A stretch of DNA of 64,000 nt from Tubiluchus corallicola (taxonomy: Eukaryota > Animalia > Priapulida). This document shows, piece by piece, positions 34,940 to 64,000 of the stretch. The translations under genes were made by a program, and so were the position numbers. The stretch spans positions 204,147 to 268,146 of the forward strand of contig JAQGDQ010000327.1 in assembly GCA_030141605.1 (NCBI GenBank). The letters are read 5' to 3'. The first letter of the stretch is position 1; every line of letters begins with the position of its first letter. A model generated the notes under the pieces. That model saw only the letters and a program-made list of their open reading frames with translations, was not told where the DNA came from and did not search any database.

Positions 34940-35675
34940 TGGTAGAAATGGCACAGGAAAAAATATGACACAGGAAAAAAAAGCAGAAAACATGGCACAT
35001 ATGACATTTTGATACAATTGATTTCTATAATAAAACTAGAATGCAGACCTCAGTAGGAAGCAGACCTCTGACAAAGCCGAACAATCTCAAGTTTATTCAT
35101 CTGATTCTTTTGATTAAAAAAAAAACAAAAATAAACAAGCAAACGTATCTGTATTGGTATTACATAGACTAACAAAACTCAAAAAATTAATTTTTTAAAC
35201 AGAATTATAATCAAAACTTCACAAATATCCCACATAGTGTTTACTTACTTTACTTTAACAATTAATTTCGGCATTGGTAATAGACTGACATATATGCATA
35301 TTTACATACCAAGTCAGCTTATAAGGCCATACACATTAATAAGCAAAGGTTATAGACAGCATTACACTTTCTCTGTGACCTCCACAAAGTGCTTCACGAA
35401 TGTTTTTTGCATGTGGTGTTCGGTCAAGTTTAATGGAAAAGAGCGGGCAAAAAATGCCCCTTTTGGAAACTGATACCTGCCTTCTCCATAAAGTTTTTGA
35501 ATAATAGGCTTAGTGCTATAACATACAAAAACCAATCAGACAAACGAACTATGTTGAAGCATAACTTCCTTGGCAGAAGTAAAAATAATTAAAATAATTA
35601 TCCCCCCCCTGAATAACCCTAACCATAAAGTCATATTTTACCATGTGTGTCATTTTTCCTGTACTATTTATACCT
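34940..35675 (-). mobile_element. Composite repeat copy A: Helentron-associated (HINE-like) element inside a (GTGCCATTTT)-rich repeat
   Basis: Inverted homologue of 41498-42440; HINE-type ends ttacttctgccaagga..ttatg and ..ctgcattctagtt. Confidence 0.65.
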
Positions 35676-41497: not shown

Positions 41498-42174
41498 ATA
41501 AAAATAGTACAGGAAAAAATGACACACTTGGTAAAATGAGTTTAGGGTTAGAATTACTATGGGGGACAATTATTTTAGTTATTTTTACCTCTGCCAAGGA
41601 AACTATGCTTCAACATAGTTTGTTTGTTTGTCAGGTTGTTGTCTGTTCTGGCAGTAACCCTATTACACAAAAACTACCAAACAAATTTCCTTGGAACTTT
41701 GTGGATAAGGTGGGTAGAGGGTCCAAAATGGGAATGTTTTCACTGAGTCTTTTTTGCAGAACTTGACCAAACACCACTTACAAAAAATATTCGTGAAGTA
41801 CTATGTGCAGGTGTGAGAGGGTGTATTTTGTACTTCTTTTTTATCTCCGCCAGGAGAAACAACTAAAGTTAGTTACAGGTTCCATTTCACGAAATTCTCA
41901 CTTGTAGCTGTCTATGGTCTTTGCTTATTAATATGTATAGCCTTATAAACTGATTTGGTATGTAAATAAACATATATCTGTCAGTCTATTACCATTGCCA
42001 AAATTAATGGCTAAAAAGGTAGATAAGCACTATGTACAATATATTTTGTAACAAACAAAATATTTTGTGTTTTTGCCATATATATATATATGGCTTATGT
42101 AAAATATTTATTTTACATAAAAATGTAAAATAAAAGTAAACAAGCAAACATACAGAAAATGTACCTGTTTTGAT

Positions 42175-42210
<36 letters not shown>

Positions 42211-42630
42211 ATCAAAACAGGTACATTTTCTGTATGTTTGCTTGTTTACTTTTATTTTACATTTTTTAATCAAATTAATCAAACAAATAAGTTTGATTTG
42301 GATTGTTCGGCTTTAGCAGAGATCTGCTTCATACAGAACGCATTCTAGTTTTTTATAGAAAACAATTGCATTAAAATATCATATGTGCCATATTTCTATA
42401 CTTTTCCATTTGTGCCATTTTCACCTCTGCCATTTTTATACATGTGCCATTTTAACCCACTTTTCCATTTGTGCCAATTTTTCCTGTGCCACTTTGATAC
42501 CTGTGCCATTTTAACCTACTTTTCCATTTGTACCATTTTCACCTGTGCCATTATTAGACCTGTGCCATTTTAACCTACTTTTCCATTTGTGCCAATTTTC
42601 CCTTTTTTATCTGTCATTTTTCCCGCACAC
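41498..42630 (+). mobile_element. Composite repeat copy B (HINE-like element within a GTGCCATTTT tandem-repeat element)
   Basis: ttacctctgccaaggaaactatg at ~41585 through cattctagtt at 42350, then a tgtgccatttt array at 42384-42600; inverted match to copy A. Confidence 0.65.
42119..42266. repeat. Perfect 148-bp palindrome centred on (TA)n
   Basis: aaaaatgtaaaataaaag..gatattg(ta)n caatatc..cttttattttacattttt; the arms are exact reverse complements. Confidence 0.95.
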
Positions 42631-51640: not shown

Positions 51641-52636
51641 TTTTTAAGTGGTGCTGAAATCTAGTTTTTTTTGCTGGATTAATGATGTGTTTAACTGTCA
51701 TTAGGTCGGATTTCTTTGATTTTAGAATTTTGTTTGGGGCCGACTAAATGAAGCACAGCGGGATGAAACGGAAACATGGCAGAATATAGCATGTGCGATC
51801 TTAAATCAAATTAGTTCGGCAGGCTATTGGGGTACTATCATGATATTAGCCTTTGGCCCGTGAGACAGATATTAATATTATTAATGCAATGGATCTCTGA
51901 GGAAGAAATAGTTGCAAAACCGCGTGTTTAGACGACATCAACCTTTACTCCGTCAAACTCTGGTAATAGTTATTTTACCGCTCTTCTTATAATGGTAGTA
52001 CAATTGTTCAATTAATTGCCCACGGGAGCTTTGGCTGGGTCGGAATGGCTATGACAAATACAAGAATGACCTCAGATTGCGAAATACGCGTTGTCTGATC
52101 TCCCTAGTTTACTAGCTGGGCTACGTAATAAGCCGCTTCAGTGTTAATATGGTCTGTGTCAGATTCGTGCAACAGATAGCGTGTTTACAGGTTTGCAAAA
52201 CTTTGAAGTATTTTCCGTTGGTACAAATCAATGTAAGCGCTACACTAACAATGGTATATACGGTTTATTAATTTAACAGCTTTTGATCGAGCCTGGGAGC
52301 CGTCGAGGGGTCGAGGAACGCGAAGACGGCCGAGCAGTCAACCTTCGTATGTTATCAATTTGCAAACCGAGATATTTTATACTACTATTTTGTGTTAAGG
52401 TTATGTCGCCAATTTTGAGTCCCAATGTGGAAGAGTCCTGTTGTGAAAAGTTCCTGCTAATTAACTAGTATTAATTGGTATTCCAACCTGAGCGGACGTG
52501 TTTATACGCTGCTACGCTGGTAACGCTCACCTGTAACATGTTTTAAAATTTCGAAATCTTGTGAAGGCCGACTGATTTGCCGATAAAAATGTTGAAAATA
52601 TAAGTTAAAATTTTTATAATGCTGCAGTTTTGATAC

Positions 52637-53584
52637 TTGCCGTTATATGAGCAGAAAGTTAATTGTGATATGCAAACAAGATCAATGACTAAATCTAAAA
52701 CGGAAGTGAAAAGCAAAAAACAACCTGTATACAAGCCGACAAACAAAGAAAGCACTTCAGCAGCGATGGAAAATAACGATGTGACTTCAGGAATGTTTTG
52801 TTCGTTTTTGTCAGAGGAAAACGAAGGGACGACTACAACCCAAACCGAGGATGACGCTGTAGCTCAAGGTAAATCAAATCGTTCAGATGATAAACTTTTA
52901 GCTGCCATTCTTCAAAGTAAAGCCGAAATGAATGAACAATTTGCAAAAATTTCTGCTGAGTTAATAGAAGTTAAAACGAGACAAAAATCTCTAGAAACCA
53001 AGTACGATAAATTGTATTCTAAACTAGAGAATAAGGCAGTCAGGATTGATAATGCAGAAAAAATCAATAAAGAACTTGAGGCTAACCTTAATGATGCTCG
53101 TAGACAAATAGCCGTTTATAAATCCGAAATTGATAACTTGGAACAATACGTACGCAGGGACTGTCTGTTATTTTACGGCCTCCCAGAACAAAAAGAGGAG
53201 AACATTTATAGCATCATCAGCCGTATAATTACGAGCATGGGCTTGCAGATAAATGATATGGATATTAGTGCAGTACACCGCATACCGTCAGAAAAAGGGG
53301 TGCCGCCGATTATAGTGAAATTTACAAGAAGGTCAGTCAGGGATAACATATATAAGCAAAGGAAAAACCGTCCAAGACTTGGTGATATAGGGTTTTCGTC
53401 CAACAATCGTGTCCAGATAGGGGAATGTCTCACTCCGGCCAGGAAGGCATTGTTCAAAAAGTGTGTTGATTACAAAAAACAACGAGGCTATAAATTTGTA
53501 TGGACAAATCAAGGAAGAATCTTTATGAGAGCTAATGAAAAAATGGAATCCTTCGAAATAAAATGTGAAGAGGACTTAACCTAA
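52637..53584 (+). CDS. Intact LINE ORF1 (coiled coil, RRM and CTD; L1/CR1-type ORF1p)
   Basis: LEQYVRRDCLLFYGLPE, DISAVHRI, IIVKF, ECLTP, YKFVWTNQGRIF. Probable ATG at 52670. Confidence 0.88.
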   Translation: MPLYEQKVNCDMQTRSMTKSKTEVKSKKQPVYKPTNKESTSAAMENNDVTSGMFCSFLSEENEGTTTTQTEDDAVAQGKSNRSDDKLLAAILQSKAEMNEQFAKISAELIEVKTRQKSLETKYDKLYSKLENKAVRIDNAEKINKELEANLNDARRQIAVYKSEIDNLEQYVRRDCLLFYGLPEQKEENIYSIISRIITSMGLQINDMDISAVHRIPSEKGVPPIIVKFTRRSVRDNIYKQRKNRPRLGDIGFSSNNRVQIGECLTPARKALFKKCVDYKKQRGYKFVWTNQGRIFMRANEKMESFEIKCEEDLT

Positions 53585-55516: not shown

Positions 55517-56319
55517 CTGCAATTATGGAAAGCATTTTGATAAAAATTTAGCATTTTTCAGACGACTGCAATGAAGTAATGCAAAGTTTTCACACTGACA
55601 AAGTAAACTAAATTCAATGTTTTTAACTAAATGATCAACTATGATTGTTCATCAAATTCTTACTAGCTATACGTTGTTAATGATTTTGTATTTTACCATA
55701 CATGGTAGTCAACCATCTGAATTTTTATACTTTACAAAATTCACTTGTAAAGATTCATCAAGGTGAGGTAAATAGCAAACTGATCACAATGTGTGCTTGG
55801 TAACTGAAGTTCAAGAATGCACAAGCTGATCATTAAATGGAAGAGTGACTGCCAGGCTCACTACTTGCTCTTGCTTTCGTTTACCACAATACTGATTCTG
55901 ACTGTCTACCTCATTGAGAATGGCTGCATTAACATACCATTGTGGTTAAAGCACCTCTGCTATTGTCTAGTCTTAACTAGGATAATGAACTAGATTCCCG
56001 TCTTGCTACAGCCATCCAAATTGAGTAGACCAGTGGGCCTGAATGCAAGAAACCAATTTGCAGTGTATTGATTTGTAAAACTTCGCACTTTATCAACCAC
56101 TCTTTTAGCTTATTTTATTATTTTTAATGCATTTTATACAGCAAAGTCCAACAAGCACCTAGAACTACAAATTATTCTGCGAAAATCTACCAAAGGCCCT
56201 GCAAAAAATTTTGCGTATAAATACACTTATAATCAAAAATATGCGAACATCCTACATAGTCCTCATTCATAACGCAAAGCGAGCAGCAGCTTTTACTGAA
56301 TTAAAGTTATAAACAGAGT

Positions 56320-56863
56320 ACAATAGAATGACGTCAGAACAATGTAAGATGTCAGCAGTTTTCCAAGCGAGAATTGCCAAAAATGGAACCTCCAATCAAC
56401 TCGTCGTAGCTCCTTTTGGTAGAGGCGTCCCAAAACGTAGCCCACATTAGCTTGTAGCCCAGTTCCTCCTCTTTCTAAAGAGCTATGTATCTCCTTCTGA
56501 GAATCCCACCAGGCCCCGCTAGAATAATTTTTCTACAGGCTGGGTCCAGGAAAATGCTTGTAGCGGGTATTAGTGTCTCCCGCTAAATCTAAATATGACT
56601 TTTACACCCACCGTTGAATGGCTATCTTACCATTACTGACACCGCCACCAGCACATTCCCATTCTCTAGAAATAAGCCGTATAATTTTTGCAAAAAACGG
56701 GCAAAAAAATGGCCATTTTTGGAGGTTCTTCGCCCTTTGTTCTAACCAGTTAACCCCTTCAAAAAATAAGCCCCCAGGTGCAAACCTATGGGTGAGGACC
56801 TTTCATTTGACATATAGATCATCGAGAATGGTGCCGTCGTCGGAGCCATAACCTCTTCGGCTT

Positions 56864-56900
<37 letters not shown>

Positions 56901-56930
56901 GCATGTATATATAGATATATATGCTATATA
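56320..56930. mobile_element. Non-autonomous Helentron/Helitron-like interspersed repeat ending in (TA)n/(ATGT)n
   Basis: Non-coding, GC-elevated block with ctttcatttgacatata-type motifs and a microsatellite end. Confidence 0.4.
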
Positions 56931-56974
56931 TTTACATTATATTAGATTATATTATTTAGATTATATATATTATA

Positions 56975-59745
56975 CAAGGACTACTATACTACAGGACGTG
57001 CACGCTGAAATCTCTGATTCGGCTAGCGGAGGCGATCAATACTTGCATGAACGTAATCTATAAATAGTGCGCTTTAGAGAGTAGTGATCTTGGAAATTAA
57101 AGAATGGGTGGATCGGTAGATAGCGAGTATTATTTTTCATTTAATTGGTTCTTTACATTACGGGAGAAAAGTACCAATTGTTTATTTTATGTATCAAAGG
57201 AAATTAGTGTTCATTTTTACTTCTTAAATAGCGCACTACTTTAGGCGTAAGTGTGTTTTACCGGAAGTAGTGCTTTGTCATTGTTAATGTGTCTGCTTGT
57301 GTTTGTTTTTTTGTGGATTATTTTCAAAATTTCTGGTGGATTTTATACATCTGTGCTCAGCAGCATGCCTAACAAGTGTGGTGTTGTTAAATGCAAAGGT
57401 AACTATGACACGGAGAACAAGTGTCGTGTGTTCAGACTGCCAAGAGATCATGTAGAAAAACAGAAATGGCTAAGTGTTCGTCCCCCACGCGAAGGCTTTG
57501 TTGTTGATCCAACGAAATTTTTCATTTGCGAAAAGCATTGACCATTTGATACTCAAATGGTCAAAATTCCAGGTGGTCACACCAGGCCAGTGGATCCACC
57601 CAGTATTTTCAACGTTCCAACATCATGCTTGCCCACTCCAAAGCCACCACCTCGCCCTCCAAAAACTGAGGACCAGCAGCTGAATTATTTCTTTAAAAAG
57701 GATAAAATAACTTCTCTCAATGACTTCACTCCTGAGAAAGACCTGCATAAGACGTATCAGAACCTCATTATATCTCGCACACAAGACAAATTTGTGTGCA
57801 TGTTCATGGAAGAGGACCACAGTCAATGTTATATGTCAATTATTGTTCACAATAAGCCTACCTTGTGTTCCCCTCTTACTCTGTATGCTTTCAAAAACGG
57901 GATCAGTGTGCCATTAAGTAAAATCCTCAGTCCGAACAATGGGCTGTCCTCTTACTCACAATTTTTCGCGGTTGTGAATTCTGTTGTCAACCACATTCAT
58001 CATGTTGATGATATTGTCAACAAAGTGACAAAGTCTCTTGAACTTGAACTAGCTCAAAATCGAGAACAATCTCCTAGTGTTAATGCTAAAGCCAAGAAGC
58101 TCAAATTTCTAACACGACAGCTTCGACTATTATGTGATAAGATTTTCACAGTGTCTGATTATTGCTTTGCAATAGAGTCATTTCCCCATTGCAATTACGA
58201 ACAACTGCGTGACTTGTCAGAGATTATCGTTTGACAAGAAAACTGTTGGCTCATTTGCTGAAGTAAAAAGTCTTTACAAAGCTGAGAAAGACAATGTGCT
58301 CAAGTCAACACCTTTGACATATTCTGCAGTCTTCCCATCGAAACTTCAGCTCCAGAATGTGCAACATGTCCTGAGGGTGTTCAACGATCGTGTCGTTGCA
58401 TCGCTGAGACTTCGAGGAGCCCAGGACACTGCAGAATTCATTCAGCAAGTGCTACGCTGGTGGAATGTGGTAAATGTTTCTGCCAGAGGTCAAGACACGA
58501 GGATGAGAGACCCTGATCGATCTGCTCAACAAGATACATCTGATACTCTTCAGTCGTTGTTGACTCTGTTTAAGCAAACCGAATCAGGACACGGACCAAA
58601 TAGAATTGAATGCCTGACACATGATACGCGAAAAGCTTTGATTCAGACCACGGAGGGACTCCTCGCTATCTGTAGGCACTTGTTTTCTGTTGGATTTCAC
58701 TACGTATTATTGCGTGAACTTCAGAGTGACAGAACAGAGGGTGAGTTCTCAGTTTACAGGCAGTCAAGGGGGGCCAATGCATTCATGCAAGCTGGAGATG
58801 TCTGTTCAGCATTCAAGCGGAGACTGGCGCGTTTCTCTGCATCATTCCTGGAGTTTGTGGACACAGACACATCATCCGAAAGCCAGTTGCACACATGCAA
58901 TGGGATTGATTTCGAGGATGCCAAAATTATGGAGATTTGTGTTGACGAGACTCTTTCCAAAACTGAACTGAACGCGTGTTCATATGTCGCAGGTTGGTTG
59001 GAGAGTAAGTGCCAAAATGACATTTCTTTTCCCGAGGATGAGCCTCTCCTTTCTGAGGAAATGAAAATGTTCACTGAAGAAGTGTCTAGGGGAGGTCTTA
59101 CAGTGCCCCACACATTCACGTTCGAATTCGTAACAACTGGCTTGTGTTTTGTGAAGAAGTCAACTCACACAGTCTGCTGCCGCAACAAGCTCATGAACAT
59201 CCTCTCCATAATCAATGCCTACTTTGATTTTGGAGAATTTTCAAGAAATGCTCTGAGACGCCTGGCGAATGTACTGCTGCATGGACTACACAATTTGGAG
59301 AAGGATCACCAGCAGAACTCAGCCCTTTACCAGACCTCCATTAAGAAGGCGCGACTAGCCGACTAATTGTCGCAAACATCTCTGTAAATGGTGAGTGCAA
59401 TAATTTCACGTATTCTAATTTACACAGAGGAACCTATGAATGAGTTTATATAGTCCTGACAAAATGGTGCAGTCTGTTTATTCTCTATAGAAAGTGACAG
59501 GTAATCTTCGGGACACAATGAGTTGCAGATATGGTGTGTTTTTTTTGGGGGGGATATCATAGGTACCACTGTTTTTAAATTACTAGATGAATGAGGAATA
59601 TGTTCTATGTGTATTGTGGCATGCTATATGTCACCATGGGGGGTAAATATGTCCAAATTATTAGCACTAAATGTTAAAAATAGATCGCCTCCGCTAGCCG
59701 AATCAGAGATCTGACCGTGCACGTCCTGTTGTATAGTAGTCCTTG
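56975..59745 (+). mobile_element. P-element superfamily (THAP-domain) DNA transposon, internal deletion derivative
   Basis: ~63-bp TIRs caaggactactatac..ggcgatc (56975-57037) and gatcgcc..tagtccttg (59683-59745). No clean TSD. Confidence 0.9.
57365..59366 (+). pseudogene. THAP9/P-like transposase, disrupted
   Basis: THAP MPNKCGVVKC..FRLP..W..ICEKH* (stop at 57539-41)..PSIF; C-terminal half QLQNVQHVLRVF, LQSDRTEGEFSVYRQ, YVAGW. The central region appears deleted at ~58215. Confidence 0.85.
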
Positions 59746-59749
59746 GTAT

Positions 59750-60658
59750 CATCTCATATATTAAGAAATTTCTGAACACCGAACATCTTCTAACATTATA
59801 CAACAGTTTAATATTATCATATTTAAATTACTGCACAACATTATGGGGCTTTACTTATACTACAAATTTAGAATGCTTAAGAGTTTTACAACGAAAATTT
59901 TTACGTGTCATCTTCAAACTAGACAAAAGGAGCACAATTACTACTACACATTTTAAGCAATGTCAAATATTACTTCTGGATGATGTTATTAATTTTAATG
60001 GATGTATATACATGTATAGAACCAACAACAACTTATTTCCAACTTTTTTTGAAAACCCAGTCAAGATAAATGTAAAAAAATACAATACCAGACATAATGA
60101 ATATATACCAAGACGTTGTAGAACAAATATGGCGAAACACTTCATTAGCTATATGGGACCAGTTCTATGGAACAGACTAAGCCGCAATTCGAAATGTAGT
60201 CACTCCCTTTTAACTTTTAAAAAAAACGTCAGAAAAGAAATATTTCAAAAGTACTAAGAGTAACACAATTTGATAATGGTAATAACCTGCATTTTTCCTA
60301 CAGTAATCTTAATATAACGTGACTATGTTTAACAGGATACTGAACACTTTGTAACCATGATCACAGTTTTTCTTAGTTCTCGCTCCATTTCATCTTTCAT
60401 TCACTACTCCCCCCCCATTTTTTTTAAGATTTCCACATACAGTTTGGCCTGTCAAGCTATGCTTTTAGGCAACTGTATGTATCAAAATTATTCTGCAATG
60501 AAATTTGCACATGTATATCCCGCATTCTGTAATTTCTCGATAATACTGCATTTATTCATATTTATATTTATATTTACTTAAATGGAAAATTATCTGCATT
60601 TTAATGCTAATTGTAAGATGCAATGTGGAAAATGAATAAACTCTTGAACTCTTGAACT
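59750..60658 (+). mobile_element. 3' end of a CR1/L2-group LINE
   Basis: RCRTNMAKHFISYMGPVLWN, similar to 4140-4430; AATAAA followed by a (ctcttgaa)n tail at 60635-60658. Confidence 0.8.
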
Positions 60659-60659
60659 T

Positions 60660-62281
60660 ATACTTAGTTTTGGTGTAATTAATTCAGATTTTGTTCGCTT
60701 TCATCCAGTCATGAAAGTTTTTTAGTTCGTTGTTAATGATAAGTTGTAAAGTTAAAGACTTGTGCCATCAGCGAAAAGACGAGTATTAAAGTCAGTAGCA
60801 AGAGACAGGTCATTCATATTGTAACGTACAGCGGATGGCGCCGATTCTTTCGCCTTAGCATAGCTGTGGAAAAAACGTAAAAACGCACCTGCCAGTGCTA
60901 GGCCACAACCGACTAGGCCATTCCATGCCAACCTACTTGTACCTGCTATTCAACGGCTTCGTAATGGATCGAACTATTACAATGTAGAGGGGGATCGAAA
61001 TTAAATGGTATTTCGCCCCCGTAACACTGCCCTCCTCTACAGAACCAGAACGAACCAGAATGAAGCACGCAGAAGAAATATTTTTTTATTGAAAAGCAAA
61101 TTTACAAATATCAAAGTTTACAAATATCAAAGTAATACAAAATTTCTGTTACAATTTGGTAAAACACGGTAAAACAAGCACGCATTAAACTTCAACGTAC
61201 CTGCTAATATGGACTCTGAGAGCTCCGATTTTTGAACAATCAATAAGACGTGTTGAAAACGCACACAAGACTACAGCTACCGGCGACGATGAAAGAAATC
61301 CGTCGTACTGCACATTGGTTCTGGCAGTTCCATGTCATAGAGGCTGTTCGGTGATGTGCTGCTGCAGATCTAAGGTTGCAGGTTCGAATCCACTGGGGAT
61401 AGCTTAGGATTACCCCCCCCCCCCCCACCGTACTAGAACCCAGTATAACACAGAGCGGATGGTGCTGATGCTCTCCGCCGTTGCATAGTTGTTAAGAAAA
61501 CGTAAAAAAGCAGTAGTAAGAGTAAAATTACACAATTAAGTAACATCTAAATATCTAATCCATTGTGCTCCATGCCGGTTGTCATTACGGAGCAGGTCCT
61601 GAGGTGGAAAACGCACCTGCCCGTCAGCCCACGAAACTGACTAGGCCATTCCATACCAGCTACTATAGCTGATATGCAATGGCTTCGTAATGGATCGAAC
61701 CATCACAATGTAGAGAGGGGTCGAAAATAAATTGCATTTCGCCCCGGTAACACTATAGATAATGAAAAGCAGTGGCCCAAGAGTGGATCTTTGAGGTACA
61801 CAGCAGTTTAAGTCTAGTAAGTCAGAACATGTATTGTTAATAGTGGTGAACTGTTGTCAATTAATTAAGCTTCAAAGAGATTCAACACAGGGCCTCTGGC
61901 CTCTAATTCCATAATAATGTAATTTATGTAGTAGAATATCATGTTAGACTGTTACAAAGGCTTTAGATAAATCTAAGAATATTGCAAAAATGATTAGTTT
62001 TTTTGTATAAATTTAGAAGCATATTTTCAAAAAACTCAGAAGTAGGTAATGAAGCAGAGTAAGTTTTGCGACAACCAAATTGAAATTTTGTTAGTATATT
62101 ACGTGAAGAGAGAAATAATAAATAATAATATACAAATAATATTTTCAAAAATTTTGGAAACTGGCGACAGGAGAGAGACTGGACGATAATTTGATAGGTT
62201 ATTTGGCGAATCATGTTTATAACCTGGTTTTACTTTTGTTACTTTTAGACATTTAGGAAAATTTCTTTCAGAAACTGCGAT
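60660..62281 (-). mobile_element. LINE RT fragment interrupted by the TRIM and cut by the Polinton-like element
   Basis: NYRPVSLLSPVSKIFE, QFGCR, PQRSTLGPLLFIIY|MND..FADG. Confidence 0.8.
60820..61752 (-). mobile_element. TRIM-like miniature LTR element
   Basis: Direct repeats 60820-61026 (TGTAAC..GTAACA) and 61444-61752; ~420-bp non-coding interior; TSD ATAT/CTAT; minus-strand purine tract gtagaggagggcag next to the left repeat. Confidence 0.8.
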
Positions 62282-62559
62282 AGTAGTGTAAAACACCCCT
62301 AAAAAAGTGCGAAAATCCGCGAAAACCCCTAAAAAGTGTGAAAACCCGCGTGAAAGTGCGCACGTGACCGAAATCTACGAAAAAGCGCGAAAAACAAAGA
62401 AAAACGAAGAAAAGGCGTGTGAAACGAGGGAAAAATTTTGCAGTTTTTCCCCTCCCGCATGGCTTTATTTGGATCGAATGACCTTGAACTCTAGGTCACG
62501 TGACCAAAGTTCATTGACCCCTAGATGGCTTCTTTTTTGACGCCCCATTTTAAACCGCG

Positions 62560-62645
62560 CGGAAGCGCGCGAAAGCGTGTGAAAGCGCGTGAAAGTGTGT
62601 GAAAGCGTATGAAAGTGTGTGAAAGAGTGTGAAAGTGTGTGAAAC
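62560..62645. repeat. 10-bp tandem repeat (GAAAGTGTGT-like) in the terminal region
   Basis: gaaagcgtgt gaaagcgcgt gaaagtgtgt gaaagcgtat.. about 8 units; related units at 62300-62430. Confidence 0.9.
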
Positions 62646-62909
62646 GAGGTAAAAAGTGTCTCAAACGAAGAAAAAGGGAGAAGTGGAGTTCCCGCCGAGG
62701 ACTAATTAGTGCTAATTGGTGCTAATTGGGGAGCCCGCTGGCTGCCACCCCTCCGTCGCGTGCAAGCGTCCGTCCCGGGGGTCGGGGACCCCCTGCAACC
62801 CACCCCTCCATCGCGTGGAATCGTCCACTGCAGGCAATGAGGGAAATCTTTTTCCCGCCACTCGCACAGTGCCGGCCCTTTTCCGCGACCACTTCTCTCA
62901 CGGGTTTAG

Positions 62910-62953
<44 letters not shown>

Positions 62954-62956
62954 GTG
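62910..62956. repeat. (TG)n microsatellite
   Basis: TG run. Confidence 0.95.
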
Positions 62957-63127
62957 GAGATTTATTTCAAACGTCAAAGTTCGATAAATGCATTTTCACA
63001 AATCTTTTTTATTGATAGATTACAAAAATTTTTTTTACATTTTTTATGCAAAATACATACGTGCTAAAACTAGATTATTATTATGGTGACATTTTACGTT
63101 TTTTTCGCAAATTACAGTAAAACTACA

Positions 63128-63745
63128 CTAATGAGTACATGGATTGTCGTCGATGTGATACAGGCAAACGTTATTGTTGTTAAAAACGAATTCGTTAAAT
63201 TTGCGGAAAACGCGAGAGAAATCCTCGACGTTTGTCCCGCCCATCATTATTATGCTTCCGGTGTGAAAAATGTTCAGAGTAATTTGCTCGCATTTACAAG
63301 TTAGTTTGGGAAGTAGCTCCACTTCGTAAAACACTTCTCTAAAAGAATGCGTCGAAGGACGAACGAGTTCTTCGTACAGTGCACCCAGTTTCAATCTGCA
63401 GCGAATTTTGGCTCTGGCGGTGATGGTGCGAATTGCGATCCCGTCGGCGGGCGTCAGTCCGAGACCTTTCGAGAGTTCTTCGATCGCATTTCGTAGTACT
63501 TTTTCCTCGGAAAAACCGTTGGCCACCACGGAGCCGGAGGCAAAAATCATCAGCGTCCCGCCCAGTCGCTTTAGCAGAAGCATTTGCAGTTTCCTTTCGT
63601 AGCGTCTTCCGCCCGTTCTCCGCTGGAGTTCGTTCAGATCGAAGCGCTGCGAGAACGAAGCCGTGGCGATGATGTTGACCATTTGGACTGACACGTTAGA
63701 ACGTAGTTGGCAATCGTTTTGGACGCCCGAATCGCTCTGCCTCAT
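63128..63745 (-). CDS. Divergent intronless TATA-binding protein (TBP)-like protein, 205 aa
   Basis: Two TBP repeats: VNIIATA..DL..LMIFASGSVVANG and IRTITA..L..YEVELLPKL..LNIFHTGSIIMMG. ATG at 63745; AATAAA downstream (~63007-63012). Confidence 0.85.
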   Translation of the reverse strand: MRQSDSGVQNDCQLRSNVSVQMVNIIATASFSQRFDLNELQRRTGGRRYERKLQMLLLKRLGGTLMIFASGSVVANGFSEEKVLRNAIEELSKGLGLTPADGIAIRTITARAKIRCRLKLGALYEELVRPSTHSFREVFYEVELLPKLTCKCEQITLNIFHTGSIIMMGGTNVEDFSRVFRKFNEFVFNNNNVCLYHIDDNPCTH

Positions 63746-63999
63746 CCGTTGCTCTGCCAACGTATGGCGGGCGGCGGGTGCTCGCTTTCCAGATCCTCTA
63801 CGCGTATGACCACGCGATTTTTGGGGAGATGTTTTTTGACGAAATCGTACATCTCTGCTCCCTTGACGTAGGTGATCCTGCCTCTGGTGGTCTGTCGTAG
63901 AATGTTTTCCAATTCTGCGTACTCGATCATTCCCTCCTCCCACGAGATGCTGTGTATGTGTCTGATTAGGTAGTTGTAGGTGGATCGCTTGTGCTGGGG
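63742..63999 (-). CDS. 3' end of an uncharacterised ORF (5' part outside the window)
   Basis: Open from the window edge: PQHKRSTYNYLIRHIHSISWEEGMIEYAELENILRQTTRGRITYVKGAEMYDF..; its TGA overlaps the TBP-like ATG (ATGA). Confidence 0.7.
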   Translation of the reverse strand, partial: PQHKRSTYNYLIRHIHSISWEEGMIEYAELENILRQTTRGRITYVKGAEMYDFVKKHLPKNRVVIRVEDLESEHPPPAIRWQSNG

Positions 64000-64000
64000 A

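Follow-up and report, generated by a model that had tools for sequence, protein, structure and literature searches.

The question raised by this locus is what kind of element begins where a decayed LINE breaks off in the genome of the priapulid Tubiluchus corallicola. The window, i.e., the whole stretch of DNA analysed, comprises 64,000 nucleotides of contig JAQGDQ010000327.1, and only 1.7 kb of the element (62282-64000) lies within it. The best reading, to which we assign a probability of about 0.8, is that a Polinton/Maverick carrying a TBP gene has its left end here, inside a dead LINE, and that the predicted role of its TBP-like protein is to direct transcription of the genes of the element. 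The element end carries an (AGT)2 motif at a junction with the LINE; the element is multi-copy, its composition is CpG-rich, unlike that of the host flank, and it contains an open frame with a TBP fold. The coordinates of the features are collected in Table 1.

Table 1. Features at the junction of the LINE remnant and the element (window positions)
Feature	Position	Strand	Basis
LINE reverse-transcriptase remnant, decayed, cut at 62281	61760..62281 (about)	-	Pfam, tblastn, contig ends
Candidate 6-bp target site, TGCGAT	62276..62281	+	Sequence; a duplicate would fall beyond the window
AGTAGT, an (AGT)2 motif where the element ends	62282..62287	+	Sequence, depth step, published motif
Non-coding terminal region, likely holding the TIR	62282..63127	.	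Repeat content, multi-copy in X1-X3
Two AATAAA hexamers, candidate poly(A) signals	63013-63008 and 62966-62961	-	Sequence
TBP-like frame, open and intronless (205 aa counted from the first ATG)	63128..63745	-	Pfam, PDB, AF2, Foldseek
Upstream open frame, 3' part only (85 aa up to the window edge)	63742..64000	-	Open reading frame

The objects for comparison were contigs from six public runs, four of which mapped on positions 56000-64000 and three on 62120-63200. Runs X1 and X2 represent one sample, possibly the source of this DNA, and X3 comes from a separate study. Contig depth is used here as a rough guide and not as a copy number; integrated and free copies contribute to it alike. Run X5, which carries the same species label and belongs to another study, gave zero cover of the terminal region of the element; this gap is uninformative because X5 barely covers the unique flanks either.

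The window has a GC content of about 37% and is rich in repeats, with many broken frames of LINEs, LTR elements, and DNA transposons. One DNA transposon, which we take to be P-element-like, occupies positions 56975-59745. Its inverted ends (CAAGG...CCTTG) measure 66 nt and are 92% complementary; a THAP domain was recognized with E 1e-4, and the transposase-like frame is interrupted near 57540 and 58200. The transposon is multi-copy (X3 depth 138-425), and no 8-bp duplication was found in its flanks. This transposon is adjoined by the 3' end of a plus-strand LINE at 59746-60660 with a short (AACTCTTG)n tail. An open 316-aa frame resembling LINE ORF1, with a coiled coil and a Baculo_FP_2nd domain (E 3e-12), is located at 52634-53584, and no ORF2 frame lies directly behind it. 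Nested long inverted repeats (34941-35606 and 41561-42588) surround about 6 kb that include a reverse transcriptase element, and a palindrome of 87+87 nt (94%) was found at 42106-42279; together they could represent a foldback element.

The LINE remnant to the left of the junction is spread over three minus-strand frames with frameshifts and stops throughout. The Pfam profile RVT_1 matched it with E 1e-5, its 25.8 bits falling short of the curated threshold (29.6). Other LINE frames of the window, used as tblastn queries, matched positions 61985-61929 (E 2e-6) and 61838-61710 (E 5e-7). Its motifs suggest that the remnant is L2/CR1-like; a search with this LINE piece found no related loci. A short repeat occurs in two related copies, at 60851-61028 and 61476-61754, the second of which bounds the remnant at about 61755. 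Local protein alignments to two distant reverse transcriptases of the window begin only at 62221 and 62191, and therefore protein homology alone cannot fix the point at which the LINE breaks.

This point was defined by contig ends and depth, which bore out the claim of the sequence-only reading that the LINE stops at 62281 and AGTAGT begins at 62282. LINE-family contigs from X2 and X3, i.e., from two studies, end at 62282. When four variant places at 62215-62237 were considered in each of the runs X1-X3, contigs ending at 62282 were found in 6 of the 12 combinations (4/4 for X3, 2/4 for X2, and 0/4 for X1, whose contigs stop by 62256); the reading of right-end distances was checked against one contig with a known end. 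Therefore, the similarity of other LINE copies to this one extends as far as the junction but not past it. Mean depth rose from 403 (X1), 5.2 (X2), and 0 (X3) at 62231-62267 to 60,098, 1,486, and 357, respectively, at 62268-62304, and the X3 value fits cover starting from about 62282, if the contigs there share the depth of the neighbouring contig. Since depth jumps and LINE-family contigs stop at the same place, a multi-copy element ends at 62282, and the earlier description of this position as an element terminus inserted in a LINE holds.

Repeated sequence lies on both sides of the junction, and no contig bridging this copy's junction was found among the contigs listed, which is what an assembly misjoin between a LINE copy and a repeat could look like. 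However, the join coincides with the end of the family and with a known end motif, and in X1 and X2 the flank is covered by low-depth contigs as far as the bin of the junction, at the depths given above for 62231-62267. We therefore regard a misjoin, or its companion explanation that the TBP-like gene is a host paralogue or retrocopy, as highly improbable. A PDB search with the frame crossing the junction returned no matches.

The motif itself occurs in the window at chance level: 35 occurrences of AGTAGT against 30.9 expected, a count reached by 24 of 100 shuffles. Its probability at a given base and strand is about 2.4e-4, and it carries weight here only because it sits at an independently defined boundary. 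At 62282 the element thus has the (AGT)2 or (AG)3 boundary motif expected of Polintons/Mavericks. In vertebrate Mavericks, according to the available part of Barreat and Katzourakis 2021 (PMC8097293), 5'-(AGT)2//(ACT)2-3' is the commonest end motif, the TIRs are 46-1,447 bp long, the target duplications are 6 bp, the sizes range from 12.7 to 24.6 kb, and accessory ORFs flank the core. The element resembles these Mavericks/Polintons, as described in that part of the paper, in its (AGT)2 end followed by several hundred non-coding terminal bases, in an intronless accessory ORF, and in being present in many copies. It differs from them in that the core genes, the second TIR, and the 6-bp target site duplication are not in the 1.7 kb visible here.

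The stretch behind AGTAGT had been described as about 700 bp of non-coding, repeat-rich sequence, and this description proved correct: no ATG-started frame above 76 codons is present in 62282-63127, and tandem arrays are. The region contains a duplicated AAAACCCCTAAAAA block near the element end, two CACGTG, a 10-bp tandem array at 62563-62644, (CTAATTGGTG)2.8 at 62702-62729, a GC-rich block, and (TG)23 at 62911-62956. Neither the commonest 6-mer nor the commonest 8-mer of the region exceeded the shuffle maximum (9 vs 17 and 7 vs 8, respectively), and no TATAA, AP-1, or CRE motifs were found in it. The two AATAAA hexamers lie 115 and 162 nt past the TBP stop in an AT-rich stretch, where they could occur by chance. 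The composition of 62282-64000 is unlike that of the host flank: a CpG observed/expected ratio of 1.33 was reached by none of 303 stretches of equal length to the left, and a GC content of 47.8% by 7 of the 303. Searches with terminal DNA patterns gave no matches in metagenome and viral contigs. The lone match in prokaryote genomes was rejected as an 18-base chance match, about 17 of which would be expected.

The terminal region likely holds the terminal inverted repeat, the inner edge of which was not found. No inverted copy of the region occurs inside the window, and the second end would fall beyond 64000. In X3, the depth of the terminal contig was 384 vs 536 for the contig with the gene (X1 and X2 are too fragmented to tell), which counts against a two-ended repeat, because the depth of such a repeat should be roughly double that of the interior. 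The undoubled value could stem from library bias, truncated copies, or split variants. The same value would suit another identity of the element, namely, a different large integrated DNA virus (a fragment of a giant virus, a mirusvirus, or a herpes-like virus) or a TIR transposon with a captured TBP gene as cargo, with AGTAGT present by chance. Against this identity stand the tens of copies, the compactness of the TBP, and the position of (AGT)2 right at a precisely defined end.

The contig carrying the TBP gene had a depth of 536 in X3 and 13,360 in X1, and the contigs of unique flanks had depths of 14 and 159-370, respectively. The element is thus about 39 times deeper than unique flank in X3 and about 36-84 times deeper in X1, which corresponds to roughly tens of copies; as judged by contig depth, it is multi-copy, as Polintons/Mavericks are. 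High depth runs on to the end of the window. Older copies of a subfamily are seen as low-depth contigs of X1, X2, and X3 covering 63315-63937, where they diverge by about 14% from the TBP region of this copy. In all three runs, other contigs match the outer terminal part and then, past 62335-62338, continue into unrelated sequence. This pattern suggests a sister, possibly non-autonomous, family sharing only the outermost end.

The existence of such sister elements with shared ends raises the possibility that the locus itself is a non-autonomous or deleted Polinton derivative, which has kept its ends and some accessory genes, including TBP, no longer carries PolB, integrase, or capsid genes, and moves with the help of other copies. 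Contigs also show several places at which this copy departs from the majority. However, its two frames are tightly packed and the TBP frame is open, the high depth persists to the window end, and the 14%-diverged relatives hold the TBP region too. We consider a derivative of this kind unlikely.

The first gene inside the element, which the sequence-only reading does not mention and which points towards the element end, encodes a protein with the TBP fold at residues ~21-189. Both TBP lobes were recognized by the Pfam profile PF00352 as two stretches (E 3.4e-21, 75.3 bits vs a cut-off of 22.9), and a PDB sequence search matched 31 solved TBP sequences, the best with E 8e-9. The AF2 model, built on a 17-sequence alignment, had a pLDDT of 88.6 and adopts the saddle fold; Foldseek matched it to solved TBPs with E 4e-11 and TM 0.65-0.75, the best TM of 0.75 being accompanied by 24% identity. 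Identity to solved TBPs is about 20-25%.

The start of the protein is less clear than its fold. In-frame ATGs at 63745 and 63682 precede the fold, and in this copy the stop of the upstream frame overlaps the first of them. All X1-X3 contigs read another letter at both ATGs and at the upstream stop, and therefore the start of the TBP-like protein is uncertain. Besides, the deepest X3 contig has 19 extra letters relative to the window at 63107-63313, apparently around the tail and stop of the TBP gene. The upstream frame had no match in Pfam, protein, or Atlas searches and no related locus, and its single-sequence model, with a pLDDT of 50.6, was of insufficient quality for searching by fold; the frame may resemble a small exonuclease-like accessory protein of Polintons.

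Canonical TBPs contact DNA with four Phe and two Asn. Alignment to the TBP of E. cuniculi showed that F68, F160, N24, E141, and E143 are kept, while L53/Q54, L145, and T107 replace other contact residues, so the canonical DNA-contact set is incomplete: one Phe per lobe (F68 and F160) is retained, and Phe at the outer positions and Asn of the second lobe have been replaced. The relative P0003 keeps Phe at the position of L145. The acidic pair contacting TFIIB is present, E141 and E143 being aligned with YEPE of a solved TBP. According to the available text of PMC7221094, one Phe per TBP lobe is near-universal, two glutamates of the C-lobe contact TFIIB, and the TFIIB-contact positions of viral TBPs are generally diverged; we infer the correspondence of the residues here to the position codes of that paper.

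A search of 1.84 billion protein representatives returned 88 proteins at E<=0.001, among which only P0003 was close (59-60%). In a quick tree of 88 rows, from which P0005 was left out for length and in which support of the deep forks was weak (81-90 SH-aLRT), the protein encoded here (P0001) and P0003 formed a long branch among divergent proteins, outside the groups of TBPs with canonical motifs. None of the four canonical motifs scored was found in the TBP-like protein; this and the multi-copy state argue against its being a paralogue or retrocopy of a host gene. The two best-ranked Atlas clusters for the protein are mostly viral, and 43 viral models match it at E<=0.001. TBP-like proteins are thus common in large DNA viruses, as the available text of PMC7221094 also indicates, which would suit a large virus of another group. 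However, the best of these models are just 16-20% identical, and an origin from such a virus, or from a transposon that captured a TBP gene, appears improbable. No loci related to the TBP-like gene were found in viral contigs, metagenome contigs, or prokaryote genomes, and searches via three more distant TBPs found no related loci.

Under the preferred reading of a TBP-bearing Polinton/Maverick, the life of the element could be reconstructed as follows. As in other members of the family, a retrovirus-like integrase would have inserted it, duplicating TGCGAT, and protein-primed replication would start at the AGT repeat; a matching ACTACT end would be expected some 13-25 kb away. The TBP-like protein would bind a TATA-like box that is likely non-canonical, given the loss of the outer Phe and of Asn in the second lobe, and it may recruit TFIIB and the host RNA polymerase II to the promoters of the element. 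Judging by its residues, promoter binding with altered specificity combined with TFIIB recruitment is the likely function of this protein.

Like the TBPs of cells and large viruses, as far as these are covered by the sources cited, the protein has a complete two-lobe saddle, one conserved Phe per lobe, and the acidic TFIIB-contact pair. Unlike them, it has replacements of the outer Phe and the second-lobe Asn and almost no N-terminal extension, and its gene is borne by a repeated mobile element. The TBP mimics of herpesviruses are much larger than the protein encoded here. Such mimics are the subject of PMC7498053 and PMC12529657.

TBP is absent from the eight core genes of Mavericks, and the word "transcription" does not occur in the main text of PMC8097293 as available. 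A precedent was found in the legend of Fig. 5 of Starrett et al. 2021 (PMC8502044), where TBP is named among the genes of MELD viruses with adintovirus-like PolB. TBP is thus common to the element and to the MELD viruses/adintoviruses of that legend; the visible 1.7 kb contains no PolB by which the element could be placed. The available text of PMC8502044 contains no discussion of TBP, its supplement gave 0 matches, and the available text of a coral polintovirus preprint (10.1101/2023.10.06.561300) gave 0 matches for TATA. No paper devoted to Polinton TBPs was present among the matches listed.

The end of a Polinton in a LINE is routine for a repeat-rich animal genome, and the insertion itself is ordinary. 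The interesting part is the TBP cargo, for which the legend of the adintovirus paper provides the precedent. The locus, itself without promoter or gene-order evidence, adds one more sequence-distinct example of such a TBP. Tentatively, and with somewhat less than even confidence, we propose an animal Polinton lineage with a private transcription switch, in which the element's own re-specified TBP would read a non-canonical promoter box on the element's genes and recruit host TFIIB and polymerase II, in the manner of herpesvirus TBP mimics, for a genome that encodes no RNA polymerase. The family found here, with its tens of copies, would be young and possibly active. A self-encoded basal factor would make the timing of Polinton capsid-gene expression testable.
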